Shown piece by piece: positions 35,931 through 63,916 of a DNA stretch of 64,000 nt (the first letter of the stretch is position 1; the number at the start of each line of letters is the position of its first letter). This DNA comes from Candidatus Omnitrophota bacterium (GTDB taxonomy: Bacteria; Omnitrophota; Gorgyraeia; Duberdicusellales; 4484-171): NCBI GenBank assembly GCA_041652815.1, contig JBAZGN010000001.1:445855-509854 (forward strand), given 5' to 3'. A program made the translations under genes and the position numbers. The notes beneath the pieces were generated by a model. It had not been told where the DNA came from. It ran no database searches and saw nothing but the letters and a program-made list of their open reading frames with translations.

Positions 35931-36707
35931 ATGAATAATAAAATCGATATTTCCGTGATAATGCCTGCCTTAAACGAAGAAAAAAATATTCGTCCAGCCA
36001 TTAATAATACCCTTAAAGCCTTTGATGAGTTTAAAATAAATGGGGAGATTGTTGTCGTAAACGACGGTAGTGATGATAAAACAGAAGAAATTATTCTAGA
36101 ATTAAAGGAAAAAGAAAAACGCCTGAAATTAATTAAACATACAACACCTCGGGGGATAGGCGCGTCATTTTGGGAAGGCGTTGATTGCGCGTCAGGTGAC
36201 GCTGTAGTGATGCTTCCCGGAGATAATGAAAATGACCCGTGGGAAACTTTTCGCTATGCAAGTTTACTTAATCATGTAGATGCAGTCATTCCTTTTGTTT
36301 TTAACCGGCAAGTACGCTCCTTTTTTAGAAACGCTTTATCATGCGCTTATAGATTTATTGTAAATTCAACCTTTGGGGTTAATTTTAACTATACTAACGG
36401 CACTATATTGTATAGAAAATCAATTTTATCCGAAATAAATTGTAAAAGTACAGGCTTTTTCTTCCAGACGGAAATCCTTATTAAGGTTGCGAAAAGAGGC
36501 TATCTTTTTGCAGAAGTGCCTTACAGGTTAGGGTTGCGTCCGGAAGGAATATCCAAGGCTGTAACGTTCCCGTCTTTTCTGAAGGTAGCAAAAGGCTATT
36601 TAAGATTAGTAAAAGATATTTATTTTGATAAGAATGTGAAAGCGGAGCGCGGTAATTTTAGCAAGGATTCCCAATCGGCAAAAAGATACAATTCGATTAA
36701 TAATTAA
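35931..36707 (+). CDS. GT2 family glycosyltransferase (dolichyl/polyprenyl-phosphate sugar synthase-like)
   Basis: ISVIMPALNEE...VVVNDGSDD...LPGDNEND match GT-A DxD-type motifs. 258 aa with no C-terminal TM. Confidence 0.7.
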   Translation: MNNKIDISVIMPALNEEKNIRPAINNTLKAFDEFKINGEIVVVNDGSDDKTEEIILELKEKEKRLKLIKHTTPRGIGASFWEGVDCASGDAVVMLPGDNENDPWETFRYASLLNHVDAVIPFVFNRQVRSFFRNALSCAYRFIVNSTFGVNFNYTNGTILYRKSILSEINCKSTGFFFQTEILIKVAKRGYLFAEVPYRLGLRPEGISKAVTFPSFLKVAKGYLRLVKDIYFDKNVKAERGNFSKDSQSAKRYNSINN

Positions 36708-36716
36708 ATATTACAA

Positions 36717-37820
36717 ATGGCTGATTTAATATTAGACGGGCACAAATTGCTTTGGCATAAAAAGCGTCTTGAAATGTGGCTTCGCGGAGAGCGAATCGCC
36801 CCCATCACTATAGACTGCGCTTTAACTAGGGCTTGCACTTACAAATGCGTTTATTGCTATGGCCAACTTCAGTCTAATGACATAAAGAAAATGACCAAGG
36901 ATGTAATTTTTAGATTTCTTGACGATGCTGCTGAGATCGGCGTAAAAGCTATAAGCTTTGTAAGCGACGGAGAAAGTACCTGTTCGCCGCATTTGTATGA
37001 TGCGATATCAAGGGGAAAAAGCAACGGTCTTGATATGGCTCTTGGCACAAATGGCTATCTTCTTAAGGATGATAAATTAGGAGAGATATTGCCGGTTCTT
37101 ACCTATCTTAGATTTAATATATCCGCAGCTGATCAGTTGAGTTACGCGAAGATAATGGGTTGTAAAAAAGACTGCTTTGACAAGGTAATTGAAACAATCA
37201 AAAAAAGCGTAGCGATAAAGAAAAAAAATAAGCTTAAGGTTACCTTGGGGCTTCAAATGGTGCTTCTTCCTCAATTTGCCGACCAGGTTATTCCTTTGGT
37301 TAAGCTTGGCAAAGAACTGGGCGTTGATTATCTGGTGATTAAGCATTGCAGTGATGATGAAGCAGGAAGCCTGGGTGTGCAATATGATAAATATTTTGAT
37401 TTGGTGAATATCTTAAAAGAAGCAGAAAGATACTCCGATAACAATTATCTGGTAAAGGTAAAATGGTCAAAAATATTAAGCGGCGGAAAACGTAAATATT
37501 CCCGTTGCTTTGGCCCCGCCTTTATTATGCAATTTTCAGGTTCGGGTTTGGTTGCTCCCTGCGGAATGCTTTTTAACGATAAATACAAGAAGCATCATAT
37601 CGGTAATATTGCCGAAAAATCTTTTAAGGAAATCTGGCAGAGTGAACGTTATTGGCAGGTGCTTAACGGGATTGCAAGTGAAAATTTTAACGCCTGCACG
37701 ATGTGCGGTTCCCTTTGCCTGCAGCATAAAGTAAATGAGTTTTTATGGGATTTAAAAACCAAATCCGCAGCGCTAGATGCGCCTGTAGGCTTAAAACCAA
37801 TGCATTTAAATTTCATTTAA
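36717..37820 (+). CDS. Radical SAM protein with C-terminal SPASM/twitch domain
   Basis: CTYKCVYCYG (Cx3Cx2C) and a C-terminal Cys cluster (CFGP...C...CTMCGSLC). Confidence 0.75.
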   Translation: MADLILDGHKLLWHKKRLEMWLRGERIAPITIDCALTRACTYKCVYCYGQLQSNDIKKMTKDVIFRFLDDAAEIGVKAISFVSDGESTCSPHLYDAISRGKSNGLDMALGTNGYLLKDDKLGEILPVLTYLRFNISAADQLSYAKIMGCKKDCFDKVIETIKKSVAIKKKNKLKVTLGLQMVLLPQFADQVIPLVKLGKELGVDYLVIKHCSDDEAGSLGVQYDKYFDLVNILKEAERYSDNNYLVKVKWSKILSGGKRKYSRCFGPAFIMQFSGSGLVAPCGMLFNDKYKKHHIGNIAEKSFKEIWQSERYWQVLNGIASENFNACTMCGSLCLQHKVNEFLWDLKTKSAALDAPVGLKPMHLNFI

Positions 37821-37823
37821 TCT

Positions 37824-39332
37824 ATGGAAGACATTATATTTATAAATCCAAAGGCGGACGAACTGGGGCCCGTTGATTTTTTAGTGCCAAAGAGCGTTCC
37901 TCTGGGACTGGGGTCGCTCGCCGCTTATTTGATGGAAAAAAAATATAGCGTCAAAATAATTGACGAAGAGGTTGAAAGGTTAACGGTAAAAAAGATAAAA
38001 AAACTCACGCAAAACAGCCGGCAATTATTCGGCATCAGCTGCATGACGCCCACCGCAAGCCGCGGTTATGAGCTCGCAGATTTAATTAAATCAACATACC
38101 CTGATTCAACTATTGTTTTTGGAGGAATCCATCCAACCGTCCTGCCTGAGGAGGTCTTAAGCAACAAATCTATTGACCTTGTAGTTAAGGGCGAGGCTGA
38201 ACCGGTGATTGAGCGGATAGTTATTAACCATAAAAATGGTGCGGGATTTAAGGATATACCTTCTTGCTCTTATAGAGACGGCGCAAATTTTATCCATAAT
38301 CCAAGGGCCCCGCTAATTGACATAAATGTTTTGCCCGACATCCCGTATCATTTATTTGACCCAAAACTCTATGATATGGGTTTTGTTATATCTTCAAGAG
38401 GCTGCCCTTATAATTGTGTTTTCTGCAGCCAGCGCGCAATTAACGGAAATACTTATCGTTATCGGGCGACAGATAAAGTAATTAAAGAAATAGAAACATT
38501 AATTTCACTCTATAAGCCATCTAACATTGTTTTTTTTGACGACATTTTTACTCTTAACAAAAAAAGAATCCATGAACTTTGTAGCGGGATAATAGATAGG
38601 GGATTGAATTTGAAAGCCGAATTTACGATGGTGACTCGCGGAGATAGTATCGATGAAGATCTTTTGTGCAAGCTAAGAGCCGCTAATTTTACCGGGCTGG
38701 CTATCGGGGCAGAAACTGCCAGCGAAGAACTTATGAAAATGATTGATAAAAAGGAAACAGTTAAGGATGTCGTAAAAGGTATTACTTTAGCTAAACAGCA
38801 TGGGTTTTTGGTAGACGTAGTATTTATCTATGGCCTTCCCGGAGAAACAAGAGAAGATAGGGTCGCGGCATTTAGATTGGCGCAGGCGTTAGACGTAGCC
38901 AAGGCGCGTTTTAATAACGCAACGCCATATCCCGGCACCAGGCTATGTAATATTGCCAAAGATGAAAATAACCTTAATATAGTCGGCGCATGGAAAAATT
39001 TTACGCCGACCGGCGCTTTAGCTGCAGCGCGGCCTTTTAAATGGGTTTTGCCATATTACCCTAAAGGCTCAACGCAGCAAGACATAATTATGGATGTCAT
39101 CCAGGCAAATATGCTCTATTTTCTGCAGCCGCACCGCCTGCGCGTACTTATCAAAAACTCTATTGACCGCCGGGGCACAAAATGGCTGGTTTTACCCCCG
39201 AAATGGTGGCTTAGTATTCGCTATATTTATGGCCTTATCAGCGTAATTTTTATAAATTTAAGCAGGCTAATGCTATTGGCTAAGTGGGGGTTGCAGGGAA
39301 AACTTCTGATTCAATGTAAATACGACAAATAA
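37824..39332 (+). CDS. B12-binding domain radical SAM protein (class B)
   Basis: N-terminal cobalamin-binding Rossmann fold plus SSRGCPYNCVFCSQ radical SAM core. Paralog of 62363..63916. Confidence 0.8.
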   Translation: MEDIIFINPKADELGPVDFLVPKSVPLGLGSLAAYLMEKKYSVKIIDEEVERLTVKKIKKLTQNSRQLFGISCMTPTASRGYELADLIKSTYPDSTIVFGGIHPTVLPEEVLSNKSIDLVVKGEAEPVIERIVINHKNGAGFKDIPSCSYRDGANFIHNPRAPLIDINVLPDIPYHLFDPKLYDMGFVISSRGCPYNCVFCSQRAINGNTYRYRATDKVIKEIETLISLYKPSNIVFFDDIFTLNKKRIHELCSGIIDRGLNLKAEFTMVTRGDSIDEDLLCKLRAANFTGLAIGAETASEELMKMIDKKETVKDVVKGITLAKQHGFLVDVVFIYGLPGETREDRVAAFRLAQALDVAKARFNNATPYPGTRLCNIAKDENNLNIVGAWKNFTPTGALAAARPFKWVLPYYPKGSTQQDIIMDVIQANMLYFLQPHRLRVLIKNSIDRRGTKWLVLPPKWWLSIRYIYGLISVIFINLSRLMLLAKWGLQGKLLIQCKYDK

Positions 39333-39357
39333 TTATTCAATCAGGATTTTAAATAAA

Positions 39358-40854
39358 ATGAACACTTTTGGCAGAGAGAAATTTGTTACTTTTTTTTATA
39401 ACGATTATGAATCTCTTGGCATAGAATACATTTCAGCTGTTCTTAGGAAGGAAGGCGTAAAAACAAAACTGATTTATAAAAATCTTATAGATTATTACGC
39501 CTTTGATTCATCCAGGAAGATAGACGGGAAACTTTATCAAAAAATTGCTTCTGAAATATGCAGCCACAACCCCGACGTTTTAGCGCTATCATTATTGACC
39601 GATACTTTTAAGGCCAATATGCTTATTGCCAGTTTTGTTAAAGAGTTAAATCCTAAGATTAAGATATTAGCCGGCGGGGTTCATGCAAGTTTACTACCCC
39701 AATTGACCCTAAGTTACCCGCAAATCGATGCTATATCGATAGGGGAGGGGGAATTTTCGGTATTAGCTTATATGCAAAGCCTTGATGCCATCTATGGCGG
39801 CGAATTCCCCCTTTTAAAAGGCATCGTCTACAAGCAAAACGAAAGATTAATAGGAAGCTTTTTGGATTATACGATCAATGAAGAATTAGACAAAATTCCT
39901 TTCCCCGATAAGGATTTGTTTTACAACGAGGATCCGTCAATGAAGTCGCACTATTTTGTCCAATGCTCAAGAGGTTGTCCATTTGCTTGCTCCTTTTGCA
40001 TTAATGATTATTTGAATTCCAAGGTAGGAGGGAAACGGTTTCGTTACCGTTCTCCGGAAAATATAATAGAAGAACTCATGCTTGCTAAGCAAAAATATTC
40101 TCCGTCCTTTGTGGCGTTTCTGGATGAATGTTTTGGATTCGATAAGGAATGGATAACTAAGTTTCTTAATCTATATAAAGATAAAATTGCGCTACCTTTC
40201 TTGGCCTCTATACATCCTAATATAGTAACGCCGCAATTAGCGGATTTGATGCAAGATGCCAACTGTGCTTATGTGGCTATGGGTGTTCAATCCTTAAATG
40301 AGAATATATCCAAGACTGTTTTAAAAAGAAGTATAAAGCGGGATAAAGTAGCTAAGGCGATAGAATTAATTCGCTCAAGGAACATGATACTTCAATGCGA
40401 CCATATTTTTGGCATTCCCGGCGAAAACCGCAGCGACATGCTGGATACCTTGTCTTTTTACAATGAAAACCGCCCGAGCCTGGTGAGCGTATATTGGCTA
40501 AGTTTCTATCCGAAGGCATATATAACAGAGTTTGCCAGAGAAAAAGGTATTATTTCTGAGCAGGATATCGAAGATATTGAGAATGGGAAGATTTCTTCGG
40601 GAATAAAAAGAGTATACGGTTATTACGATATTAATTTCTGGATGAATTATTTTATTTTTCTCAATAAAAACTTCATACGCTGGGTTATAAATTCCGGTTT
40701 TTTGAGTCTTTTTAAAATAAAGAATATCTTTATTTCAAGCGCCTTCCCGCGGGCGCTTTTCGCGCTGTTGCATAAAAGAGATTGGAATAGATATTATATG
40801 AGAAGAGTTATTATGAAAAAAATAAACAATTTAAAGGTATGGGGGCCTTCTTGA
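39358..40854 (+). CDS. B12-binding domain radical SAM protein (class B)
   Basis: CSRGCPFACSFC cluster preceded by a B12-like domain, 498 aa. Confidence 0.75.
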   Translation: MNTFGREKFVTFFYNDYESLGIEYISAVLRKEGVKTKLIYKNLIDYYAFDSSRKIDGKLYQKIASEICSHNPDVLALSLLTDTFKANMLIASFVKELNPKIKILAGGVHASLLPQLTLSYPQIDAISIGEGEFSVLAYMQSLDAIYGGEFPLLKGIVYKQNERLIGSFLDYTINEELDKIPFPDKDLFYNEDPSMKSHYFVQCSRGCPFACSFCINDYLNSKVGGKRFRYRSPENIIEELMLAKQKYSPSFVAFLDECFGFDKEWITKFLNLYKDKIALPFLASIHPNIVTPQLADLMQDANCAYVAMGVQSLNENISKTVLKRSIKRDKVAKAIELIRSRNMILQCDHIFGIPGENRSDMLDTLSFYNENRPSLVSVYWLSFYPKAYITEFAREKGIISEQDIEDIENGKISSGIKRVYGYYDINFWMNYFIFLNKNFIRWVINSGFLSLFKIKNIFISSAFPRALFALLHKRDWNRYYMRRVIMKKINNLKVWGPS

Positions 40855-42421: not shown

Positions 42422-43222
42422 ATGCCTAAAAAGTCATCTATTCGCGCCGAAGATTACAATTTAGTTTCTTCTACAAGAAACGAGAAAGTATCTACCGATG
42501 CTATTGCCATAATCATTCCGTGTTATAACGAAGAAAAAAGGCTTAAAAGGGATGCCTTTGTGGATGAGCTTTCAAACTATTCCAATCTAACTTTTTTATT
42601 TGTAAACGATGGCAGTAAAGATAATACTTTATCAGTTATACAAAAAATATGTACCGTCAATCCCGAGAGGGCTTTATGTTTTTCGCTTGAGGCAAATAAA
42701 GGTAAAGCAGAAGCGGTAAGGCAGGGCATGCTTTATTTATTAGAAAAGGATAAATACGATATTATTGGTTTCTGGGACGCTGATTTGGCAGTACCACTTT
42801 CAGAAATTTGGGATTTTGTTGAAATTTTTAAGAAGAATTCGAATATAAAAGCAGTAATTGGCAGCCGCGTTCATCTTGCCGGCAGGTCAATTGAACGTGT
42901 GCACCTGCGACATTATTTTGGCAGACTGTTTGCCACTGTTGTTGATTTGACTTTTGACATTCATGTTTATGACACTCAATGCGGAGCTAAACTTTTTGAC
43001 AGTAGAATACTCGCTGCCGTAGCTAGAGAGCCTTTCTGTTCTCGGTGGATATTCGATGTAGAGATTATTATACGCATATCAAGGTTAATCGGAACTCGTG
43101 ATTGGTTATATGAGGTTCCGGTAGAGGAATGGAAGAATATTTCCGGGACAAAACGTTCTATTTCCGCTTACACCCAAGCCTTATTTGATTATATGAGTTT
43201 AATGATGGAGTATCGGCGTTGA
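42422..43222 (+). CDS. GT2 family glycosyltransferase (polyprenyl-phosphate sugar synthase-like)
   Basis: IIIPCYNEEKRL...FVNDGSKDNT...WDADLA, 266 aa. Overlaps the start of the downstream YfhO-like gene. Confidence 0.7.
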   Translation: MPKKSSIRAEDYNLVSSTRNEKVSTDAIAIIIPCYNEEKRLKRDAFVDELSNYSNLTFLFVNDGSKDNTLSVIQKICTVNPERALCFSLEANKGKAEAVRQGMLYLLEKDKYDIIGFWDADLAVPLSEIWDFVEIFKKNSNIKAVIGSRVHLAGRSIERVHLRHYFGRLFATVVDLTFDIHVYDTQCGAKLFDSRILAAVAREPFCSRWIFDVEIIIRISRLIGTRDWLYEVPVEEWKNISGTKRSISAYTQALFDYMSLMMEYRR

Positions 43223-45690
43223 AATTATTAAAAATTAATATATTTAGGTTGAAAAATTATCTTATCGCAAAATTTAATTTCCCTTTGGTTCTATTATTCC
43301 TGTTCCCTTTTTATTTTGCTTATAACTTATATCGCGGCAAGGTTTTCTTTTCGCATAATGATTTTGCGGGAATGTATTATCCTTTTCGGCAGTGGTTCCT
43401 TGGCCGCCTTATGAATTTTAAATTCCCCCTCTGGAATCCCTACTGGGGTACAGGCCATGAAGCAGTTATATGGTCTACGGTACCCCTTGACCCTTATACA
43501 TTTTTTGAACTTATTATAGGGCCTCAATATAGATACTTTTATCTTATACAATGCATGGCGCTTGTTTTAGCCGGATATTATATATTTAGAAAAATGAAAC
43601 TTGATTCATGGGCGGCAACAACATGTTCTTTGCTTTTCTTTTTGTCCCCTTTAATCACGTATTGGTATTTTGAATTTATCAATACCAATACCTTTATAGC
43701 GCATATGTTTACTTTTTTATTTATAATTAAATGGCTTGAAACGGGCAAATGGCGGTATGTTTTATTGATAGGCTGGTCATTCTTTTTGGGAATGTTTGGA
43801 ACAAAGTTAGAATTCTGGTTTTTTGAATTTATTTTTTTTACTTTATTACTGATAACTGCCTTTTTCGTCATAAAGCCCAAGAGGCCTTCAATGATTATTT
43901 TTGCCTGGCTGAGCATTTTAGTTGCGATTTTAGCACAAAGCTGGCAAATAAATCTTTTATTAAATGCATTAAGTAATTCCGGACGTATGCTTGTACCGCA
44001 CAGCTTAGCAAACCTTTTTTCTTTTGAATTATATAAGAATCTTTTTCTAAGCCTGAGCGATTCAGAACTAATTCCACTTACGCTGATTTGCGTTTTTGCA
44101 TTTATCGGGCTATACAACAGGTCTCGTTACCGCTGGGATTTTATTTTTTTAGGTTTAATCGTACTTTTTTTATTTAAATCTTGGGAATTCACCTTTTTGC
44201 CATTATTTCTACGTAGTCCCGTTTTCTTCGGTGCCTTACTTGCTTTTTTACTTTCAATTCGTAAAACCTCACAGAAACATTTGTTATCTGCCTGGATTAT
44301 TTTTATGCTTGGTGCTTACTATTGGTATAAACCGCTGGTTAATTTTGATGAGCTATATTTACTTCGCACAGCCCCGTTTCTTTTTAAATTAGTATGGGGA
44401 TTCTTTGTTTGGTTGGGATGCTTAGAAGCGCATAGCAATAAAATAGTTAGATGGGCATATCTGTCTATTTTTATAGTTTTTCTACTAGAAACTCAAGGGC
44501 AGATTATTTTAACTCACCTCTTTGGCCTTGTTTGGATTCCGGGACGGGACAATTATTTAATAGATTTTTCTTTTGTTCTTATGGCTGCCTTTGGGGTTAT
44601 GCGTAATTTTAGATTCAAATCAGTTATTTTAAAACTCGCCCCTTTTATTATCGTGTTCTCTGCATATAATAATTTATACTATACCCTGCCTCGTCAGTCA
44701 GTTCCGGGGTATGCAAACCCCCTGTTGCGCTCGGGACTCAATTACGATCCTTTTAAGGAAGTCCCGGACTTGAAAACAATTATCGAAAAATTTAGCTATA
44801 TACCTTATCGCAGAGCGCTTGACCCCGATATTGAAAAACAGCTTCCTCAAAACCAAGGGACATTTCTTCTTGAAAAAACAGATAATGTCACATTTTATGG
44901 CAGTATGAAACCATCGCGATATACTGAATTAGTAAATTTTTATAATTATGGTATTACCCCGGAAGATAAGATATCGGGTTATCCTTCGGTCTATTCAGAA
45001 AAAACAATCTCACGGCTTCCCAAATTAAAAACTAAAGGGTTTACTAATAATATAATTTATTATTTTACGGTTTGGACCATCCCGCCCTTAGATTCAGATT
45101 TACTTAAATTGCTGGGGGTGGACTATATTGTGACTAGAGATAATAATTTGCTGCTTTCGTCAGCGCAGAAATTAGGGCTTAAGAATATTACAAAATACGG
45201 AGATTTTAATGTGGCAGAGCTATCTGAAACGTTGCCGCGCTCATTTTTAGTCTCTAATGTAACTGGAGATAATTTTGATGATTTCAAAAATAATATGCGC
45301 CCCTCTATTAAATTAGAGAACCAACACTTATCGAGGGCATCAAATACCTATCTTGTTAAACCCGCACACATTCTTAAGTATGAACCCGAATATGTTGAAA
45401 TATCGGTAGAATCTTCTCGTGGAGGATATTTGGTTTTGACTGATATTTTTCATCCCTACTGGTCAGCTTTTGTTGACGGAAAGCTTACGGAGATTGTTCC
45501 GGCATTTTATGCTTTTCGTGCAATTAAGGTGCCCGACGGTATACATAAAGTCGAATTTCTTTGTAGGGTACCGCATTTTGCCGTAGCATCTTTCACATCG
45601 ATTACATTAGTCATAATATTTCTGATTGCAACCTTGTATCTCTGGAATAAAGAATATAATTTTAATGTCAGGCAAGCGCAGAAGAAATAA
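43219..45690 (+). CDS. YfhO-like polytopic membrane glycosyltransferase (GT-C fold) with C-terminal extracytoplasmic domain
   Basis: 823 aa with multi-TM N-terminal half and YYPFRQW...FPLWNPYWGTGHEA motif as in the YfhO family. C-terminal 300 aa are soluble. Confidence 0.5.
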   Translation: MKLLKINIFRLKNYLIAKFNFPLVLLFLFPFYFAYNLYRGKVFFSHNDFAGMYYPFRQWFLGRLMNFKFPLWNPYWGTGHEAVIWSTVPLDPYTFFELIIGPQYRYFYLIQCMALVLAGYYIFRKMKLDSWAATTCSLLFFLSPLITYWYFEFINTNTFIAHMFTFLFIIKWLETGKWRYVLLIGWSFFLGMFGTKLEFWFFEFIFFTLLLITAFFVIKPKRPSMIIFAWLSILVAILAQSWQINLLLNALSNSGRMLVPHSLANLFSFELYKNLFLSLSDSELIPLTLICVFAFIGLYNRSRYRWDFIFLGLIVLFLFKSWEFTFLPLFLRSPVFFGALLAFLLSIRKTSQKHLLSAWIIFMLGAYYWYKPLVNFDELYLLRTAPFLFKLVWGFFVWLGCLEAHSNKIVRWAYLSIFIVFLLETQGQIILTHLFGLVWIPGRDNYLIDFSFVLMAAFGVMRNFRFKSVILKLAPFIIVFSAYNNLYYTLPRQSVPGYANPLLRSGLNYDPFKEVPDLKTIIEKFSYIPYRRALDPDIEKQLPQNQGTFLLEKTDNVTFYGSMKPSRYTELVNFYNYGITPEDKISGYPSVYSEKTISRLPKLKTKGFTNNIIYYFTVWTIPPLDSDLLKLLGVDYIVTRDNNLLLSSAQKLGLKNITKYGDFNVAELSETLPRSFLVSNVTGDNFDDFKNNMRPSIKLENQHLSRASNTYLVKPAHILKYEPEYVEISVESSRGGYLVLTDIFHPYWSAFVDGKLTEIVPAFYAFRAIKVPDGIHKVEFLCRVPHFAVASFTSITLVIIFLIATLYLWNKEYNFNVRQAQKK

Positions 45691-51021: not shown

Positions 51022-51034
51022 TAAATTTAACACA

Positions 51035-53139: not shown

Positions 53140-53420
53140 GACTGATTAATTCTGTATTTTAGCGTGCTATGAGGCTATATATTGGAACTATTTCTAAAAT
53201 AGGTTAATTATATGACTGTTTGGCAACAATTGAGAACATGATCGAAGATACTGCAATTTCTTTAGTGAGAGTAAATTGTGCAAGATGCGGTGATTGCGAA
53301 TCGATTGCTGTCGTTAATACTATTGACTACGAAAGGTCGGGACCAGGGGAGTTTGAAGTTGTCAAGTGCCTAAAATATAGAGGCAATAGTAATTCAATTT
53401 GACACACATAAGGGAGTTTA

Positions 53421-56042: not shown

Positions 56043-57341
56043 ATGAAAATAACACTACTTAATGTAGAAAAGACAGGCGACAATAAAGACTTTAACGCAG
56101 GCTTTGGCACCGCCTTTCAGGTAGGCAGTTCCTTTGGGGCAAAGTTTTTAGAACGAATGAGATACGAAAGGGAATATTTGCCTTTATTGTCTTACGGATA
56201 TTTAGCGGCGATATTAAAACAAAACGGCCATACGGTTAGCTATGCGATAAACACTATACCAAAAGACGCAGATTTAATAATTATGCAGTGTTCGTTAATC
56301 CGGCACAATGCAGAACTTGATTTTATTAAAGCTATCAAAAAAAATACTAAAGCTAAAATAGGGTTGATAGGCCCTTTTGTCTCTGTTAGGCCGGATTTGT
56401 TCATTGAGCATGCAGATTTTATTGTTAAGGGAGAGTTTGAAGAAGTTGTTCTTAGGATGAAAGGCAGCTATATACCCGAAGGTATAGTTGAAGGCACCCC
56501 AATACAAAATTTAGATATTTTGCCTTTTCCCAATTGGAGCATTTTCCCTGTAAAGCTTTACTCCTGTAGGCCGCTACTACCTAAGATGCCTTTTATCTTT
56601 ATTCAGAGTTCACGAGGCTGTTCATATTCCTGTAATTATTGTCCATATAAAGTAGTTGGTACCTACAGAGAAAGAAGCATAGGAAATGTTATTGAGGAAA
56701 TCCAGTATCTCATAAAAGATTACGGGATACGTAGTTTCATGTTCAGGGACCCCTGTTTTTCTTTTAATACCCAAAGAACAATTGCTTTCGCTGAAGGGAT
56801 AGTAAAAAATAAAATTAAATTTGAATGGTGCTGCGAAACTCGATTAGATAGATTAGATAAAAAATTGGTTGATTTATTATATGCGTCCGGATTAAGGGCC
56901 CTTAAAGTAGGAATTGAATCAATAGATGACAACGTTTTGAAATTTCAGAAACGAAAACCAATCAACATAAAACATCAGGAAAATATTATTAATTATTGTG
57001 ATAAAAAGGGTATTAGCGTGCTTGCTTTATACCAATTAGGGCTTGAAGAAGATACAAAAGAATCAATCCTTAAGACTATTAAGTATGCTAAAAAACTAAA
57101 TACAGATTTTGCCAATTTTACGATATGTACCCCAATACCCGGTACGGAATATTATGATCAGATAAAAGACAGGATATGCGAAAAAGACTGGGAAAAATTC
57201 AATAATTTTTATCCAGTCTTTAAACATAAAAATCTTTCCAAGGATGAGCTTATCGCGTTTCAGGAAAAGGCAATTGTTTCTTACTATATAAGGCCGAAGC
57301 TTATATTTAGGCATTTATTAAGGAGTTTTAAATGCTATTAG
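56043..57341 (+). CDS. B12-binding domain radical SAM protein (class B)
   Basis: QSSRGCSYSCNYCPY cluster after an N-terminal B12-like domain, 432 aa. Confidence 0.75.
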   Translation: MKITLLNVEKTGDNKDFNAGFGTAFQVGSSFGAKFLERMRYEREYLPLLSYGYLAAILKQNGHTVSYAINTIPKDADLIIMQCSLIRHNAELDFIKAIKKNTKAKIGLIGPFVSVRPDLFIEHADFIVKGEFEEVVLRMKGSYIPEGIVEGTPIQNLDILPFPNWSIFPVKLYSCRPLLPKMPFIFIQSSRGCSYSCNYCPYKVVGTYRERSIGNVIEEIQYLIKDYGIRSFMFRDPCFSFNTQRTIAFAEGIVKNKIKFEWCCETRLDRLDKKLVDLLYASGLRALKVGIESIDDNVLKFQKRKPINIKHQENIINYCDKKGISVLALYQLGLEEDTKESILKTIKYAKKLNTDFANFTICTPIPGTEYYDQIKDRICEKDWEKFNNFYPVFKHKNLSKDELIAFQEKAIVSYYIRPKLIFRHLLRSFKCY

Positions 57342-58216
57342 TGACGGGCGCCAGCGGATTTGTCGGACGGCATCTTTTAGAAAAACTAATTAAAAAGGGA
57401 GTAAAAGTAAGATGTCTGGTCAGGAATAGGAATAAGGTTAATTTAACGAATCCTAACTTAGAAATTATTGAAGGTGATATTTTAGATCAACATATTATAG
57501 ATAAAGCCACAGAAAACATTGATTTAGTAATTCATCTTGCAGCTGTAATAAAATCTTCAAATCCGGAGAGAATTAGAGAGGTAAATATTGGGGGTACGAC
57601 AAAAATAATTTCAGCCTGCCGTAAGAATAAAGTAAAGAAAATAATCCATATTAGTTCTTTAGATGCCGCCTTAGGCATTACTAACCTTTACGGTACTACA
57701 AAAAAAATTAGCGAAGAAATTGTTAAGAAATCAGATATTAAGTATATAATATTAAGGCCATCATTAATATATGGAGAAGGCTCTAAAGATATAACTGCAT
57801 TAGCGCGAATTGTTAAAAAATATCCTATAATTCCCATAATAGGCAATGGCAAATTGCAGCCGCTATATATTGATGATTTTTGTGAACTGATAGTTAAAAT
57901 GATTGATGGCGATGTGCAGGATAAGGTTTATTTTGTAGGAGGCAAAGAACAGCTTACCTTGGGACAATTAGCGGATAAGATAGCAGCTTTAAATGGCAAA
58001 AAAATAATAAAAATTTATATACCATTAGAAATATTTTGGCTACCGCTCAAAATATTTAACATATTTTCGAGAAATTCGCAGTTAAGTTATGATTCTTTAA
58101 AATTACTTAAGTTTAATAAAATCTGTGATATAGGCGAGGCAAAAAGAGATTTTAATTTTACACCGATGAGCATAGATGAGGGTTTGCGTTTAATGGCGCA
58201 ATTAGGCTTTAATTGA
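57332..58216 (+). CDS. NAD(P)-dependent SDR-family epimerase/reductase
   Basis: MLLVTGASGFVGRHLLEKL Rossmann fold, 294 aa. Overlaps the upstream gene end. Confidence 0.65.
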   Translation: MLLVTGASGFVGRHLLEKLIKKGVKVRCLVRNRNKVNLTNPNLEIIEGDILDQHIIDKATENIDLVIHLAAVIKSSNPERIREVNIGGTTKIISACRKNKVKKIIHISSLDAALGITNLYGTTKKISEEIVKKSDIKYIILRPSLIYGEGSKDITALARIVKKYPIIPIIGNGKLQPLYIDDFCELIVKMIDGDVQDKVYFVGGKEQLTLGQLADKIAALNGKKIIKIYIPLEIFWLPLKIFNIFSRNSQLSYDSLKLLKFNKICDIGEAKRDFNFTPMSIDEGLRLMAQLGFN

Positions 58217-58231: not shown

Positions 58232-59659
58232 ATGGCGAAGATATTACTTATTAATCCTTCCTGGCGGCCGACATATAAGAATATACTTGGTTCTATCGGC
58301 GTTCCTTTTTTCCCTGTCTTGGGTTTATCTACCATAGCAGCCGAAGCGAAAAATAAAGGACATAAAGTAGAAATTCTAGACCTTTCATATAGAGAATATA
58401 ATCCCGATTTGGTATACGAGCGCGTCAGAAATAACTCTTATGATATTGTTGGTTTTACCGGAACAACGCCTTTGTTTGCTCAGGTGATACAGCTTTCCAA
58501 GGGTATTAAGAAAATAAGTAAAAATATATTTACTATAGGTGGAGGCTCGCATTGTTCTGCTTTGCCTGAAAGGTCAGTAGAAGAGGCAGATTTAAATGCT
58601 GTTTGCGTAGGGGAAGGAGATTTTATATTAACTAAAATAGCAGATGGAATGCCTCTTTCAAAAATTCCCGGCTTAGTCTACAGAGACGTTAACGGACAAA
58701 TTATCAGAAATCCAGCGAGTGAATGGATAGATGATTTAGACAAACTTCCTCTGCCTGCCTGGGATTTATTTGATATTAAAGAATATCTTCCTTATACTTC
58801 ACGTTTATTGGGTAAACGACCGCCTGTCTGTTTTTTTGAAACTACGAGAGGCTGCTTATTCCAATGTGACTATTGCGCAAGCAAATTAACGAAAGGAAGA
58901 GGATTACGGAAAAAATCCGTAAACAGAGTAATTGAAGAAATACACTATATGAAATCTTTAGGTTTTAATGAATTTTTTATCTGTGATGATATATTTACAA
59001 CCGATGTCGAACGTACAAAAGAAATTTCAAGAAGAATAATCAGTGAAAAAATAGATATGGCGTGGCAATGCCAAAACGGCATTCGTGTAGATTCAGGAGA
59101 TGATGAGATGTTTAAGCTTATGCGTAAGGCCGGTTGCTATAAGGTTGCCTTTGGTTTTGAATCCGGAAATGATAAGGTGCTAAAGGAATTCGGCAAAGGT
59201 GGAAGGGCTTCAATTGAAAAAGCTTTTGCAACGGTAAAAATGGCGAGAAAAGCAAATATAGATGTATTTGGTTACTTTATGATCGGCCTTTTAAACGACA
59301 CGGAAGAAACCATGCGCGATACTATTGAATTTGGCAGAAGATTACAGCCGGACATATTAAAAATAAGCACCTGTATCCCTTTCCCTGGTACAAAAATGTT
59401 TAACGAACTGAAAGAACGCAATCTTTTAAAAGTTTATGACTGGGAATGCTATAACATATACAGAGCACAGGATTTCTTCGAACATCCCAATCTTAAGTGG
59501 GAAACTGTCGAAAAATATTACAAGTTGGCATATAAGCGTATGATTTATACTAACCCTGGTTTTATCATGCGCCGGTTGATAAAGTCTATCAAGAGAGGAG
59601 AATTATTTTACGATATTTATTATTTTTTTAAATTTATGCTGGCAGGCGGAAAAATCTAA
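58232..59659 (+). CDS. B12-binding domain radical SAM protein (class B)
   Basis: ETTRGCLFQCDYCAS cluster with N-terminal B12-binding fold, 475 aa. Confidence 0.8.
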   Translation: MAKILLINPSWRPTYKNILGSIGVPFFPVLGLSTIAAEAKNKGHKVEILDLSYREYNPDLVYERVRNNSYDIVGFTGTTPLFAQVIQLSKGIKKISKNIFTIGGGSHCSALPERSVEEADLNAVCVGEGDFILTKIADGMPLSKIPGLVYRDVNGQIIRNPASEWIDDLDKLPLPAWDLFDIKEYLPYTSRLLGKRPPVCFFETTRGCLFQCDYCASKLTKGRGLRKKSVNRVIEEIHYMKSLGFNEFFICDDIFTTDVERTKEISRRIISEKIDMAWQCQNGIRVDSGDDEMFKLMRKAGCYKVAFGFESGNDKVLKEFGKGGRASIEKAFATVKMARKANIDVFGYFMIGLLNDTEETMRDTIEFGRRLQPDILKISTCIPFPGTKMFNELKERNLLKVYDWECYNIYRAQDFFEHPNLKWETVEKYYKLAYKRMIYTNPGFIMRRLIKSIKRGELFYDIYYFFKFMLAGGKI

Positions 59660-59706
59660 TCATAAAATTAATTATATATTGATAGTAAAATAAGGACTTT
59701 AATCGG

Positions 59707-60864
59707 ATGAAGAAAGTAAACTGGGACACTTTTAACAATGACGAGGAAATCATAACTTATTTGCGCAGTCTTTCTCGCTATAGAAATACTGCTTTTAAGT
59801 CAGCGTTTAGCCGGGGAAAATTCTTTTTTAAACTTTTATACTGCCGATTATTTAAAATCGATAAGCCCCTATTTATTGTTTTGGTTACCAATAATAAATG
59901 TAATTTAAAATGCAGATATTGTTATGGAGATTATGGAAACCGCACCGACGATAAAGATTATTCTACGAAAGAATTGTTAAAGTTGATAGATGAATTAAAA
60001 GAAATAGGAACTCAGCTGATTACAATGCATGGAGGAGAATCTTTGTTGCGTAAAGATATAGGTGAGATAATTAATTACGCAAAACATAAAGGATTCTATA
60101 TAAGTTTCAATACTAATGGTTACCTTGTTCCTAATAGAATAGCGGACTTAGAATGTCTAGATACCATGGTGTTTAGTTTAGATGGAATGGAAGAAAGTAA
60201 TGATAAAAATAGAGGAAGGGGATGTTTTAAAAAAGTTATGGAAGCCATAAGTATAGCTCAGCAGAATAACATACCCTGTGTTATCTCGGCAACCTTAACA
60301 AGGGATAATATGCAAGATATGGAATTTCTTGCAGAGTTGGGATTAATGAAAAATATCAGAATACAATACAGCATACTTTATAATTCGCCTGTTCTCAAAG
60401 ACAAATGTTCCGATATGGTTATGTCTGATAAAGAAATTAGAGAAGTTGTCAGAAAGATATTATCCCTTAAAAAGAAAGGGCATCCAATTTATTATTCCGA
60501 TAATGTTTTGGCGGCAGCGATTAACTGGCCCGTTCCTATCGATGAAAAACCATACTTTGCCACCAAGGATAAAGCAATATATAAAAACCATAAATTAGTA
60601 TATTGTTATCATGGCAAATTAAAATACCAGATAGACGCTGACGGCCGCGTAATTACCTGCTGGGTCCATGATAACGCCCATGCTCCTAACGTGAAAGAAC
60701 TTGGCGTTGCGAAAGCAATAAAAAAGTGCCACAGTGACAATAATTGTAAGCATTGCGCTTTTTTAGCGAATAACGAGCATAACGCGCTTATGCATTTGAG
60801 CCCCAGAAATATTTTGAATAATTTTTTTATCCAGGTTAGCGACGCTTTTAAAATAAAAAATTAA
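59707..60864 (+). CDS. Radical SAM protein with C-terminal SPASM/twitch-like Cys cluster
   Basis: VTNNKCNLKCRYCYG core. C-terminal CWVHD...CHSDNNCKHCAF cluster. Confidence 0.7.
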   Translation: MKKVNWDTFNNDEEIITYLRSLSRYRNTAFKSAFSRGKFFFKLLYCRLFKIDKPLFIVLVTNNKCNLKCRYCYGDYGNRTDDKDYSTKELLKLIDELKEIGTQLITMHGGESLLRKDIGEIINYAKHKGFYISFNTNGYLVPNRIADLECLDTMVFSLDGMEESNDKNRGRGCFKKVMEAISIAQQNNIPCVISATLTRDNMQDMEFLAELGLMKNIRIQYSILYNSPVLKDKCSDMVMSDKEIREVVRKILSLKKKGHPIYYSDNVLAAAINWPVPIDEKPYFATKDKAIYKNHKLVYCYHGKLKYQIDADGRVITCWVHDNAHAPNVKELGVAKAIKKCHSDNNCKHCAFLANNEHNALMHLSPRNILNNFFIQVSDAFKIKN

Positions 60865-60876
60865 TATATTAAAAAT

Positions 60877-61680
60877 ATGATTTATTATATTGTGATAGGT
60901 TCATCTAGGGGGTTGGGGTCGGCATTGGTTGAGGAATTGCTGAGGCAAGAGCATTGCCAGGTTATCGGGGTAGCCCGAACAACACTCAAAGACATAAAAG
61001 GTCACGAAAAATGGATAGCTTCAGGAAGGTATCGTCATGTCGAAGCGGATATATCTTCTTCTCGATGCCACCAGATTCTAAGTTCTGTTGCCAGGAACTT
61101 ATCCCCTAGCCCCATATGTATAATTTTCAATTCCGCACACATAGAAAAGGATATTAATCCAGATAATAAATCTATTAATTATGTTGCTTTTGAGCGAGTA
61201 AACCGCGTAGGAATTGATGGTCTGGGAAATATTCTTTTTATTTTCCAGGAGCATTTATTAAGATACGGGGGGGTTTTTGTAGGTATTTCTTCTTTTTGGG
61301 GTACCATTCCCCCTCTTTTTTTACCATGGGTAGCTTATCCAGCTTCCAAAGCCTATTTAAATATAGCCCTACGCTGTCTTAGGGTGTGGTGGCGTGGACG
61401 CATTAAAGTATTGATTGTAAACATAGGTAACATTGGTAAAGACACTTCATTGCCTAAGTGGATAGTGCCGACCTATTCTATGGCAGCCAGAAAAATTATT
61501 TATTCTCTCTCGATAAAGAAAATACCCAGGGTGATTAATTATCCCTTTTGGCACGCAGTAGTTTATCTATATATTTTAAGATTTATTCCTGAAATATTTT
61601 ATTTATGGATATTTAAATTATACTTTAGGTTCCAGCCACCCCAAAAGAAATCAGAGAAAAGTAACAAGATAGATGTTTAA
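60877..61680 (+). CDS. Short-chain dehydrogenase/reductase family protein (divergent)
   Basis: IGSSRGLGSALVEEL matches the glycine-rich SDR motif. The C-terminal half is hydrophobic and atypical. Confidence 0.55.
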   Translation: MIYYIVIGSSRGLGSALVEELLRQEHCQVIGVARTTLKDIKGHEKWIASGRYRHVEADISSSRCHQILSSVARNLSPSPICIIFNSAHIEKDINPDNKSINYVAFERVNRVGIDGLGNILFIFQEHLLRYGGVFVGISSFWGTIPPLFLPWVAYPASKAYLNIALRCLRVWWRGRIKVLIVNIGNIGKDTSLPKWIVPTYSMAARKIIYSLSIKKIPRVINYPFWHAVVYLYILRFIPEIFYLWIFKLYFRFQPPQKKSEKSNKIDV

Positions 61681-61750
61681 GGAATCCGAGAGAATAGAGT
61701 TCGGAACAAGGATAATATTATTAAGATGAGTTATGTTGCAACTAAAAAGG

Positions 61751-62329
61751 AGGAAGGCAATGGATAAAGAGGTTGATTTGGAACATTTTAAGAATTTTAA
61801 ATATGATGTAGTGATAAAAAAAAGAGGAAAAAAATTCGTTTTAGTTATTCCTGAATTAGGTATTATCGAAGAAGATGATAATCTCGAAAAAGCATATCAA
61901 AGAGTAGAGGCCGGAAAAGAAAAACATTTTCAAAAAATTATACAGTTTGACTTACAGGATGAAATCGTGGAACCTAAAAAAGTAATAGCAGAGAAGCTGG
62001 ATAGCAAAAAAATATTTATTACGAATATTGCTATTTTTGTAACTAAAGTCATAATAATTCTTTTTATAGCTACTTTAGCTGTGAATTTTATATCAGACCG
62101 TATAGGAAATATCACAAGTGTCTCCATAAGCCAATTTGTTAACGAGAAAGCGAAGAGTTGTTACAACAGATTGCACGATATCCCGGATGAAAAAATTGAA
62201 AAAACAAAGCTTCAGGTGCGCAATGCGATAAAAAAGTTTAAACCGATTCTTAACGAGTTTAAGGTTTTACTGCATGATGATGCTCAGCAAAACGCCGCTG
62301 CTGTTTCCCCGGGAAATAGCAATGAATAA
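61751..62329 (+). CDS. Hypothetical single-pass membrane protein
   Basis: ATG 61751 after AAGGAGGAAGG. One hydrophobic helix (IFITNIAIFVTKVIIILFIATLAV). No recognised domain. Confidence 0.4.
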   Translation, partial: RKAMDKEVDLEHFKNFKYDVVIKKRGKKFVLVIPELGIIEEDDNLEKAYQRVEAGKEKHFQKIIQFDLQDEIVEPKKVIAEKLDSKKIFITNIAIFVTKVIIILFIATLAVNFISDRIGNITSVSISQFVNEKAKSCYNRLHDIPDEKIEKTKLQVRNAIKKFKPILNEFKVLLHDDAQQNAAAVSPGNSNE

Positions 62330-62362
62330 GTAATTATAAATTAAAGCCGATACTTCAAAGTT

Positions 62363-63916
62363 ATGATTTTAATTAATTCATCGCCAAAAGATGCTTTAAA
62401 AATATTCCAGCCGTTTTTACCCATATTTGTGCCGGTAGGCATTGGATGTTTACTTTCTGCTGCCGAAAAAGAAAAGATCGCGGTTAAATACATAGACGAG
62501 CAGGTAGAGGATGACACTTTGGCTTTAGTAGAAAAATATACCAAAGAAATGCAACCGCCATATATCTTTGGTTTTAGTGTTTTAACCGCCGCGTTTAAGG
62601 AAGCGCTTTTTATATCTCGTGAATTAAAAAAAAGATATCCCGATTCTTTTATAGTATTCGGCGGCGTTCATCCGACCGCAATGCCGCAAGAAGTATTGTG
62701 GCATAAACACATAGATATTGTTATAACCGGAGAGGGCGAGAAAACGTTAATTGAACTATATAAACATATCAAAAACAAAAAAGAATTTACGCACCTGGAA
62801 AATATTTCTTTTAGAAATAATGGCAGTATTGTTAATAATAAACGCGCTTTCAAATTGGATAATCTTGATACTTATCCGAAGTTTCCCTATCATCTTTTTT
62901 CTACTAAAAAATATGATTTAGGCTTTGTCTTAAGTTCTCGAGGTTGTCCTTATGAATGTATCTTTTGCAGTAATCGCGTTACAACCGGCAGACAATATAG
63001 GTATAGGTCAGCCGGAGTTATCGTTGAAGACTTGGAAATGTTATATAGGCAATATAATAAAAGGTCGATACTATTTTTGGACGACAACTTCTTGGTAAAT
63101 AAAGAAAGGATATATTTGCTCATAGATGAAATAAAAAAGAAAGGATTAGATAAAAAAATGATATTTAATTTCCAGGCCAGAGGAGATAATGTTAATTACG
63201 GAATTTTAAAAGATTTACATGATTGCGGATTCAAAAGTATTTTTTTTGGTATAGAAACTTCTAACGAAGAAATTATGAAGATAATCAAAAAGAATGAAAC
63301 GGTTACTCAGTGTGTAGATGCTGCCAAGCTGGCGAAGAAAATCGGTTTTCATGTGAGCGCGACATTCATTTACGGTTTACCTAAAGAGACCCGTGAAGAT
63401 AGGTTAAATTGTGTTAAATTAAGCAAAGAGATAGGTTTAGATATGGTTAGGTATAATAATGCAACCCCTTATCCGGGAACGGAGTTGTATGAGCTTGCAA
63501 AGAAAGAAGGCCGCCTGAACGTCCAGGGTGTATATGAGAATTTTAATTCCGTATCTACGTTTATTGAAAACCCTTTTAAAAAAATACCTTTTTCTTATGT
63601 TCCGCAGTGCTCTAGCGAAGAAGAAATCCGCAGAGATATATTGTTCAGCTATTTTAGTTATTACCTTGACTGGCGAAGGATTAAACAGATATTTGCAAGG
63701 CCTGATTTAGGTGTTGGATGGTTTAATGCCGGCAGTAATTTGATGGAATTTTTAAAGAAATTACCTTCGCTTGTCTTTTTGGGCGCAATGATTATAAGTA
63801 AATTCTGCCAATTGTTTTACTTTATAGTTTTAAGAAAAAATACGCGTATTTCTTTAAAATGTTTTTTTAAAGTTTTCGACGGTCTTTTGTGCAAAGAAGT
63901 CGAAAGTAATCCTTAA
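62363..63916 (+). CDS. B12-binding domain radical SAM protein (class B), paralog of 37824..39332
   Basis: SSRGCPYECIFCSN with KFPYHLF...RYRSAGVIVEDLE, closely parallel to 37824..39332. Confidence 0.8.
   Translation: MILINSSPKDALKIFQPFLPIFVPVGIGCLLSAAEKEKIAVKYIDEQVEDDTLALVEKYTKEMQPPYIFGFSVLTAAFKEALFISRELKKRYPDSFIVFGGVHPTAMPQEVLWHKHIDIVITGEGEKTLIELYKHIKNKKEFTHLENISFRNNGSIVNNKRAFKLDNLDTYPKFPYHLFSTKKYDLGFVLSSRGCPYECIFCSNRVTTGRQYRYRSAGVIVEDLEMLYRQYNKRSILFLDDNFLVNKERIYLLIDEIKKKGLDKKMIFNFQARGDNVNYGILKDLHDCGFKSIFFGIETSNEEIMKIIKKNETVTQCVDAAKLAKKIGFHVSATFIYGLPKETREDRLNCVKLSKEIGLDMVRYNNATPYPGTELYELAKKEGRLNVQGVYENFNSVSTFIENPFKKIPFSYVPQCSSEEEIRRDILFSYFSYYLDWRRIKQIFARPDLGVGWFNAGSNLMEFLKKLPSLVFLGAMIISKFCQLFYFIVLRKNTRISLKCFFKVFDGLLCKEVESNP

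Follow-up and report, generated by a model that had tools for sequence, protein, structure and literature searches.

The DNA analysed here is a 64,000-nucleotide window from a Candidatus Omnitrophota bacterium (assembly GCA_041652815.1, contig JBAZGN010000001.1, positions 445,855 to 509,854 of the forward strand), and our subject is the gene island between positions 35931 and 63916 of that window, in which eight radical S-adenosylmethionine (SAM) enzymes are interleaved with glycosyltransferases and large membrane proteins. We consider it probable that this is a horizontally mobile envelope glycan island, whose radical enzymes would tailor activated sugars before these are handed to polyprenyl phosphate and transferred by membrane glycosyltransferases of the GT-C fold. 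The known part of such a system is the assembly of surface glycans by polyprenyl-phosphate sugars and GT-C enzymes. The new part is the radical tailoring battery and its conservation across phyla.

The eight radical SAM genes reported by a first-pass annotation of the window are all present as open reading frames (ORFs) at the starts it gave, all on the + strand. The CX3CX2C motif is intact in 8/8, and their PF04055 scores range from 56.7 to 95.5 bits against a gathering cut-off of 29.5. Radical SAM genes make up eight of the 21 island genes and none of the 34 annotated genes upstream (Fisher exact p = 1.7e-4); at an assumed background of 2%, the binomial probability of at least eight in 21 is 4e-9. 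No curated NCBIfam cut-off, whether for a housekeeping, peptide-maturation, cofactor or lipid family, was reached by any of the eight genes, whose best scores are 20-35% of the family cut-offs. For the housekeeping families HemN/HemW, MiaB/RimO, MoaA, BioB and NrdG, scores of 20-75 bits compare with cut-offs of 131-357. Because no curated cut-off was reached, the eight enzymes are not housekeeping proteins, and the housekeeping alternative that had been proposed for checking by profile search fails. The paralogs are 24-30% identical to one another (40% for 37824 and 62363), which suggests that they are old.

The 21 island genes form a tightly packed array on a single strand, with intergenic gaps mostly below 61 bp. 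They are listed here with the start of the gene that follows them. Genes are named by their start coordinate in the window, and L numbers are our handles for related loci, including the groundwater contigs L001-L003 and a Candidatus Scalindua contig, L173. Other terms used in the list are short-chain dehydrogenase/reductase (SDR) and carbohydrate-binding module (CBM).

35931 to 36707, + strand: GT2 glycosyltransferase without a transmembrane helix (Pfam, transmembrane scan); in a recurrent trio with 36717 and a class B gene of the 62363/37824 type
36717 to 37820, + strand: SPASM/twitch radical SAM enzyme (PF04055, PF13186; C264-x17-C282-x44-C327-x2-C330); proposed dehydrogenase converting a sugar C-OH to C=O
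37824 to 39332, + strand: class B radical SAM enzyme (Pfam), 40% identical to 62363; L001 ortholog at 72%
39358 to 40854, + strand: class B radical SAM enzyme (Pfam); orthologs at 68% in L001-L003 and 66% in L173
40862 to 42421, + strand: polytopic membrane protein with about 10 transmembrane helices, a 48922 paralog (BLAST) and putative GT-C enzyme; L173 ortholog at 50%
42422 to 43222, + strand: GT2 glycosyltransferase without a transmembrane helix (Pfam, transmembrane scan)
43219 to 45690, + strand: YfhO-like polytopic membrane protein of 823 residues (Pfam YfhO, 23.8 bits, below cut-off); L173 ortholog at 59%
45752 to 48904, + strand: polytopic membrane protein of 1050 residues with an internal CBM-like insert (BLAST to 43219); orthologs at 51-54% in L172 and L173
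48922 to 51021, + strand: membrane glycosyltransferase of the GT-C fold with a C-terminal CBM_4_9 domain
50987 to 52171, + strand: DegT aminotransferase (Pfam, 287 bits), start/stop overlap with 52171
52171 to 53139, + strand: BtrN-like twitch/SPASM radical SAM enzyme (C231-x17-C249-x44-C294-x2-C297); proposed sugar dehydrogenase feeding the aminotransferase
53421 to 54122, + strand: WbqC-like protein (Pfam, 245 bits), neighbour of a twitch radical SAM gene
54122 to 55072, + strand: ArnC/PgfS-type polyprenyl-phosphate sugar synthase, a GT2 enzyme with C-terminal transmembrane helices (NCBIfam, transmembrane scan)
55074 to 55955, + strand: class I SAM methyltransferase (Pfam Methyltransf_23/11)
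56043 to 57341, + strand: AprD4-like radical SAM enzyme whose N-terminal Rossmann domain is degenerate (PDB match to AprD4)
57332 to 58216, + strand: extended SDR of the NmrA/epimerase type (Pfam), proposed to act as reductase with the radical SAM enzymes on either side
58232 to 59659, + strand: class B radical SAM enzyme of a widespread conserved family (Pfam, AlphaFold2 model)
59707 to 60864, + strand: radical SAM enzyme with a C-terminal cysteine cluster (Pfam Radical_SAM, Fer4_12)
60877 to 61680, + strand: classical SDR (Pfam adh_short), neighbour of 59707
61733 to 62329, + strand: protein of 198 residues with one transmembrane helix and no family; identical in L166-L170
62363 to 63916, + strand: class B radical SAM enzyme (Pfam); its relatives adjoin the GT2 and twitch pair
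63931 to 64000, + strand: N-terminal part of a small membrane protein truncated at the window end; its 23 N-terminal residues match L086:5495-6019

The first-pass annotation had divided the radical SAM genes into five of the B12-binding class B and three of the SPASM/twitch type, and this division holds in part. Four genes pass the PF02310 cut-off of 32.1 bits (37824 at 63.4, 39358 at 64.1, 58232 at 53.6 and 62363 at 58.4) and by this domain are predicted class B enzymes that bind cobalamin. The fifth, 56043, scores 18.4 bits and falls outside class B by domain content; its best solved relative in PDB sequence searches is AprD4 (E 1.8e-26), which is reported not to bind cobalamin (PMC12931638). 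AprD4 is also the best solved relative of 58232 by sequence and fold, and the AprD4 family profile (NF033070) gives 117.5 bits for 56043 and 92.7 for 58232, below its cut-off of 500. Among the proposed SPASM/twitch enzymes, 36717 (37.5 bits) and 52171 (41.1) pass the PF13186 cut-off of 21.5. No PF13186 match was found for 59707, which matches Pfam Radical_SAM and Fer4_12 only and has a C-terminal cluster of cysteines (C300, C318, C341, C347, C350; a TIGR04084 alignment reaches residue 352); its best PDB matches are SkfB, CteB and BlsE. The best PDB match of 52171 is BtrN, at E 1.8e-9. At least three or four of the eight enzymes resemble dehydrogenases or dehydratases of sugars more than they do methylases.

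Gene fusions support a reading of the twitch enzymes as sugar dehydrogenases. A natural 713-residue fusion of DegT aminotransferase and twitch/SPASM radical SAM enzyme is encoded in L002 (2134-4275); its counterparts in the window are separate genes that overlap by one base, with stop and start at 52171. In the 36717 family, the partner fused to a member may be DegT, an acetolactate-synthase/YerE-type thiamine diphosphate (ThDP) enzyme (protein P0410), cytidylyltransferase domains or a methyltransferase domain. These fusion partners all consume a keto-sugar or activate a sugar phosphate. Two 36717 homologs, P0317 and P0300, have inteins (Hint, LAGLIDADG) inserted in the radical SAM core.

For the class B enzymes, an extensively C-methylated product had been suggested, and our results do not establish it. 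C-methylation as in GenK/GenD1 is plausible by analogy. Among curated families, the class B genes score best against HpnJ, BchE and ApyD, and HpnJ (TIGR03471, cut-off 577.6) is highest with 203.6 bits for 58232, followed by 162 for 62363 and 158 for the AprD4-like 56043; 37824 has 170 bits to BchE (cut-off 481). We see as possible, though doubtful, a reading in which the class B enzymes are non-methylases that perform an HpnJ- or BchE-type rearrangement or cyclisation of a lipid- or nucleotide-linked sugar and yield a carbasugar or rearranged sugar (e.g., by ring contraction to a carbocycle) within the same glycan framework. The substrate of HpnJ is a lipid-bound sugar put in place by a GT2, which parallels the recurrent trio of GT2 and radical SAM genes described below, and the island already has a conventional SAM methyltransferase at 55074. 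Both of the top-scoring families are listed as non-methylating class B enzymes, although most characterized members of the class are C-methylases (PMC12931638), and all of these scores are far below the cut-offs. The AlphaFold2 model of 58232 (predicted local distance difference test, 86) aligns at a TM-score of about 0.7 to the diol dehydratase AprD4 and to OxsB, and the methylases TsrM, MgmA, TokK and CysS reach the same value. The 58232 family itself is widespread, with 665 homologs and matches in at least 587 reference genomes of many phyla.

The same scores bear on a very unlikely alternative, in which the radical SAM enzymes modify membrane lipids of the hopanoid, ladderane or ether-lipid type and the glycosyltransferases build a glycolipid head group. 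Weak matches to HpnJ, HpnR, a ladderane-associated B12 radical SAM family and Tes would fit it, as would the presence of the island in an anammox genus. However, none of the scores comes near its cut-off, the twitch family is fused to nucleotide-sugar enzymes, and neither the window nor the related loci hold squalene/hopene cyclase, polyprenyl, fatty-acid or hopanoid genes.

We return to the envelope glycan reading with the machinery that would assemble the product. Three GT2 polyprenol-phosphate glycosyltransferases had been proposed, of which 54122 stands. It has a GT2 domain and two to three C-terminal transmembrane helices, and it aligns over the full length with the NCBIfam models of PgfS (184 bits) and ArnC (159 bits), short of the equivalog cut-off in each case, its residues 7-313 matching ArnC positions 8-315 of 316; this combination places it with the ArnC/GtrB/PgfS-type enzymes. 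The other two, 35931 and 42422, have no predicted transmembrane helix and partial alignments only, which sets them outside that type. The four polytopic proteins that had been called GT-C-like fall into two families. In the first, 48922 has a polytopic membrane domain with a GT-C fold and 40862 is its paralog (25% identity over 460 residues, BLAST E 1e-14 to 1e-16); the assignment stands for 48922 and, through this paralogy, is supported for 40862. In the second, 43219 and 45752 are distant relatives joined by three collinear BLAST segments. For 43219, YfhO (PF09586) gives 23.8 bits against a cut-off of 28.5 over the C-terminal 90 residues of the profile only, and the protein's C-terminus is linked through transitive BLAST matches to YfhO-positive ORFs of L086 and L087. 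No YfhO match was found for 45752, and a genome scan with this 1050-residue protein returned no relative. PDB sequence searches with membrane proteins gave no membrane-domain match for either one searched. A CBM-like domain in the middle of 45752 (residues 284-495) is 36% identical to the C-terminal CBM_4_9 of 48922. The donors of GT-C enzymes are linked to polyprenyl phosphate and are used at the extracytoplasmic face of the membrane; periplasmic-side assembly is for this reason well supported, and the view of the locus as a glycan island with extracytoplasmic assembly is upheld by the ArnC-type GT2 and the GT-C fold enzymes.

Pfam bears out the remaining assignments, namely the DegT (WecE-type) aminotransferase, the SAM methyltransferase, the WbqC-like protein and the two SDRs. 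The WbqC gene adjoins a twitch radical SAM gene also in L001, L002, L172 and L173, and a literature search on WbqC found no functional data. The product of 61733 had no homolog in the related loci fetched and is present as identical copies in independent assemblies of the same population.

Homologous modules recur well beyond this chromosome, as the first-pass annotation had proposed to check: in groundwater contigs, in a Nitrospirota metagenome-assembled genome (MAG) and in Candidatus Scalindua. Module 1, with the order 56043-57332-58232-(37824-39358)-59707-60877 and then a class B gene, is found in L001-L003 at 41-79% identity, followed directly by genes for a nucleotidyltransferase, an HldE-like protein, an SIS isomerase and another SPASM radical SAM enzyme. 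Module 2, in the order 48922-DegT-52171-WbqC-54122-methyltransferase, is found in L002. Module 3, made up of GT2 (35931), 36717 and a class B gene of the 62363 type, was seen at 60-77% identity in nine or more contigs (L088, L091, L097-L100, L104, L105 and L124). On the Scalindua contig, each of the four membrane proteins has an ortholog (45-59% identity), and these lie together with 39358 (66%), 60877 (46%), two twitch radical SAM genes, WbqC, DegT, GT2 and methyltransferase genes. The Nitrospirota locus has a similar set (membrane proteins, twitch, WbqC, DegT, SDR, class B) at 45-66% identity. The SDR genes keep their neighbours: 57332 lies on the same strand near 58232 orthologs in seven distant lineages, and 60877 adjoins 59707 in L001-L003, its L173 ortholog adjoining a class B gene.

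We also compared 110 fetched loci of at least 10 kb, 53 with two or more radical SAM homologs and 57 with one. GT2 genes (22/53 against 9/57), large polytopic membrane proteins (42/53 against 25/57) and SDRs (26/53 against 6/57) are all commoner in the loci with two or more. Class B paralogs are found with GT2, PMT_2 and methyltransferase genes in Nanoarchaeia loci. In the cultured Magnetospirillum moscoviense BB-1 (L013 2500-18300, NZ_LWQU01000104.1), a 50%-identical 58232 ortholog sits in a WbpB/D/E/I-type polysaccharide cluster with UDP-GlcNAc 2-epimerase, WbpB/WbpD-like, DegT, GT2 and two Asn-synthase-type amidotransferase genes. One locus, L112 1-21500 (Ga0116142_10000572), has nine class B paralogs in 21.5 kb, denser than the window, and also carries genes for a GT2, a PMT_2-like protein of 762 residues and an ABC-2 transporter. 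Radical-SAM-rich loci of Elusimicrobia lie beside nitrogenase paralogs and represent a different system.

The integrity of the island was evaluated against independent assemblies. Four of these (Logan twice, ENA and JGI) have contigs 100% identical to the window over 48.9-63 kb, and the longest independent contig keeps the gene order from 48922 into 62363. The agreement of the four in gene order, at 100% identity, rules out an assembly artefact, and the chimeric assembly named as an alternative in the first-pass annotation falls away with this result. We give almost no credence to the wider form of this alternative, in which the assembly is chimeric or unrelated radical SAM enzymes, including cofactor maturases or those of peptides made by the ribosome and modified after translation (RiPPs), simply lie beside glycan genes. 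Its supporters could point to the 100%-matching short-read contigs, which all end inside 62363 between 62,960 and 63,300 (340 bp of the radical SAM core), to a fall in GC content after about 40 kb and to a cysteine-containing ORF of 60 residues in a 281-bp gap. The identical assemblies argue against it, as do the recurrence of the modules across phyla, a radical SAM density far above background, scores that reach no RiPP or housekeeping family cut-off, and a small ORF that lacks both homolog and domain. In a sister population, contigs L121 and L107 end at the corresponding point of 62363, and L086 has an 86%-identical 62363 ortholog with a different upstream but the same downstream context. 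Because the sister population breaks at the same place, the 62,960-63,300 break looks like a recombination point or a strain-variable boundary of a glycan cassette.

Downstream of about 40 kb (window 40000-64000), GC content is 0.29-0.35, down from about 0.39, which would fit a cassette that was acquired horizontally or evolves fast. The 60-residue ORF (53220-53402) has a CARCGDC motif and lies inside the only long intergenic gap of the island. It was considered as a RiPP precursor and rejected, since it lacks both a Pfam domain and a homolog among the fetched loci. The 281-bp gap is absent from L001 and L002, and a promoter and terminator scan around it gave no signal above shuffled expectation. 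The ORF is probably not a real gene. With RiPP maturase scores far below cut-offs in all eight radical SAM genes and no RiPP genes in the window, the earlier statement that the locus lacks them holds.

The window as a whole is a bacterial chromosome segment that encodes Rho, RF1, PrmC, MurA, the trp operon, tRNA-Pro and an LptD-like protein. The named relatives of its MurA, at 70-85% identity, are all Candidatus Omnitrophota, and on this ground we assign the chromosome to Omnitrophota. A protein 100% identical to the 48922 product (P0241) is on record from an 811-kb contig of an Omnitrophica MAG. For the 62363 product, an exact look-up gave no record, which a different gene call would probably explain. 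The feature exceeds the limits first drawn for it. From about 17.5 kb, where nucleotide-sugar genes begin, to the window end, all sizeable ORFs are on the + strand, and the island runs past the window end, given that the truncated ORF 63931 is orthologous to the downstream gene of L086. Beyond that small membrane protein, L086 carries YfhO-like, DAO, GT2 and PMT_2 genes. The upstream genes are as follows.

17570 to 20368, + strand: two sugar dehydrogenases of the UDP-glucose/GDP-mannose type (Pfam UDPG_MGDP_dh N, central and C domains), first genes of the sugar locus
20365 to 23647, + strand: RmlC-like cupin, RmlA, RmlB-like 4,6-dehydratase and RmlD of the dTDP-6-deoxyhexose pathway (NCBIfam rmlA, 271 bits, and rmlC-like; Pfam GDP_Man_Dehyd, RmlD_sub_bind)
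23658 to 29233, + strand: four SDR epimerase/dehydratases and one DegT aminotransferase, the latter at 26645-27877 (Pfam)
29230 to 31345, + strand: domain-swapped HldE-like nucleotidyltransferase/kinase and GmhA-like SIS isomerase for heptose-type activation (NCBIfam HldE and rfaE domains I/II, below cut-offs; Pfam SIS_2)
31351 to 34617, + strand: one SDR epimerase and two DegT aminotransferases (Pfam)
34627 to 35929, + strand: split minimal transketolase-like ThDP enzyme of 272 and 163 residues (Pfam Transketolase_N, Transket_pyr)

Besides the rml genes, six further SDR epimerase/dehydratases and three DegT aminotransferases were counted in the upstream region. In the HldE-like protein (29230-30771), an N-terminal nucleotidyltransferase precedes a C-terminal PfkB kinase, the reverse of the order in E. 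coli HldE. The same reversed architecture, at 511-513 residues, recurs inside the L001 radical SAM module, and the pair of HldE-like and SIS genes is embedded in the radical SAM module of L001/L003. The ThDP enzyme is encoded directly upstream of GT2 35931 and twitch radical SAM 36717, and its orthologs (58-67%) adjoin a 62363 ortholog in L096. Taken with the ThDP-fused 36717 homolog, this neighbourhood hints at two-carbon branching of a keto-sugar.

From gene content, domain architectures, folds, recurrence and fusions, we propose a pathway whose catalytic steps, substrates and acceptor are all inferred. The upstream genes would make nucleotide-activated sugars (dTDP-6-deoxyhexose, heptose-type and amino sugars), which the eight radical SAM enzymes, alongside conventional partners, would remodel without oxygen. 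The BtrN-like twitch enzymes 36717 and 52171 would convert a sugar C-OH to a ketone, and this ketone could pass to the DegT aminotransferase 50987 or to the ThDP enzyme at 34627-35929. BtrN is a precedent, oxidising the C-OH of an aminocyclitol to a ketone (PMC13598754). 56043 and 58232 would pair with SDR 57332, and 59707 with SDR 60877, so that a radical step plus NAD(P)H reduction could give net deoxygenation or epimerisation, as AprD4 and the NADPH reductase AprD3 together deoxygenate a sugar (PMC5461906). The remaining class B enzymes 37824, 39358 and 62363 may carry out C-methylation or another C-C rearrangement. The ArnC-type GT2 54122 would then load the finished sugars on polyprenyl phosphate, and the four GT-C-type enzymes, two of which have carbohydrate-binding modules, would transfer them to an envelope acceptor at the outer face of the inner membrane.

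Several observations weigh against this proposal. None of the eight enzymes is near a characterized one, with PDB E-values between 1e-9 and 1e-26. The BtrN match of 52171 covers its N-terminal half only. The cysteine spacing C-x17-C-x44-C-x2-C, found in both 36717 and 52171, is one that we take, provisionally, to resemble that of the auxiliary cluster of BtrN. The predicted fold of 58232 does not separate methylase from dehydratase or rearrangement chemistry, and the radical SAM substrate may be a nucleoside diphosphate sugar, a polyprenyl-phosphate-linked sugar or the finished glycan. GT-C status for 43219 and 45752 is weakly suggested, by YfhO similarity below threshold. The window has no gene for an initiating phosphoglycosyltransferase, Wzx/Wzy or an ABC exporter, and an Rfam scan of the whole window found tRNA-Pro only, with no cobalamin or SAM riboswitch.

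It is improbable in our view that the locus is instead a secondary-metabolite cluster with an aminoglycoside- or aminocyclitol-like product. The combination of a BtrN-like enzyme with DegT, an AprD4-like enzyme with a reductase, class B enzymes comparable to GenK/GenD1 and several aminotransferases is what such a cluster might contain. But there is no sugar-phosphate cyclase of the 2-deoxy-scyllo-inosose synthase type, GT-B enzyme, resistance gene or exporter, and what dominates the locus is one ArnC-type GT2 together with four large, polytopic proteins of GT-C type and their CBMs. It is also contiguous with rml and heptose-type genes, and its relatives lie in O-antigen-like clusters.

The architecture had been called unlike any described O-antigen or capsule locus, and our literature searches agree, as they found no radical-SAM-rich or cobalamin-radical-SAM O-antigen, capsule or envelope glycan locus, and none in Omnitrophota. 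The words sugar, glycan and polysaccharide are absent from the main text of a 2026 review on B12-dependent radical SAM enzymes (PMC12931638). The conservation of these modules across phyla and their wiring to polyprenyl-phosphate/GT-C machinery suggest that anaerobes routinely diversify surface glycans by radical chemistry. As a tentative extension, we suggest an unrecognised pathway class, widespread in uncultured anaerobes of several bacterial phyla and of DPANN archaea, in which radical SAM batteries would build heavily remodelled surface sugars, perhaps while these are linked to polyprenyl phosphate, and GT-C enzymes would install them. With the same reserve, the sugars could be aminated, deoxygenated, C-alkylated, chain-branched or carbocyclic.

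To our knowledge, radical SAM sugar chemistry comes almost only from a few antibiotic pathways (BtrN, AprD4, GenK/GenD1, DesII). If this tentative extension is true, the radical sugar enzymology, known only from the antibiotics of actinomycetes, would be primarily an envelope-glycan toolkit of anaerobes. The locus yields several well-conserved uncharacterized enzyme families with defined partners, for which Magnetospirillum moscoviense and Methylomonas rosea WSC-7, both with a 58232 ortholog, and Scalindua enrichments (QQTZ01000063.1) offer cultured handles. Omnitrophota are thought to depend on host contact, and their surface glycan is for that reason likely to be ecologically important. The island may also provide the genes behind unidentified modified sugars of envelope glycans, those of anammox included. 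The S-layer O-glycan of Kuenenia contains methylated N-acetylhexosamine and an unidentified 174-Da unit, with methyl positions assigned from mass alone (PMC5088730). A link to the island is a lead only.

Parallels among known systems include enzymes of branched-chain and deoxy sugars. In the island, a ThDP enzyme lies next to the twitch radical SAM gene, and in the homolog P0410 the two kinds of enzyme are fused, as would be expected for keto-sugar branching; the ThDP enzyme YerE is of the acetolactate-synthase type, whereas the island enzyme is a split transketolase type. The pairing of aminotransferase and radical SAM enzyme is shared with DesI/DesII, and the DesII profile gives no more than 36 bits where its cut-off is 450. 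HpnI/HpnK/HpnJ likewise have a GT2 beside B12-domain radical SAM enzymes, and HpnJ is the best family for 58232, 62363 and 56043. Unlike that system, the island scores 158-204 against 578, has no hopanoid genes and has additional twitch radical SAM and GT-C enzymes. The aminoglycoside enzymes BtrN with BtrR/S, AprD4 with AprD3, and GenK/GenD1 include the best solved relatives of 52171 (BtrN) and of 56043 and 58232 (AprD4), and they too include class B enzymes and pair radical SAM genes with an aminotransferase or SDR. However, the island sequences are distant (117 against 500 for AprD4), a cyclitol synthase is missing, the host is neither an actinomycete nor a Bacillus but an uncultured anaerobic diderm, and the context is that of an envelope glycan.

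A close likeness is seen as well with the decoration of lipid A by 4-amino-4-deoxy-L-arabinose through ArnC/ArnT and of teichoic acid or O-antigen through CsbB/GtrB and YfhO/GtrC. With these the island shares the ArnC/PgfS-type GT2 54122, membrane transferases of the GT-C fold and YfhO-like type, and the DegT aminotransferase, and related loci of the island also carry a formyltransferase. It differs from them in its four large GT-C-type proteins, two with CBMs. The undecaprenyl-phosphate decoration systems that we know to be described do without any radical SAM enzyme, whereas the island has eight interleaved with its glycosyltransferase genes.

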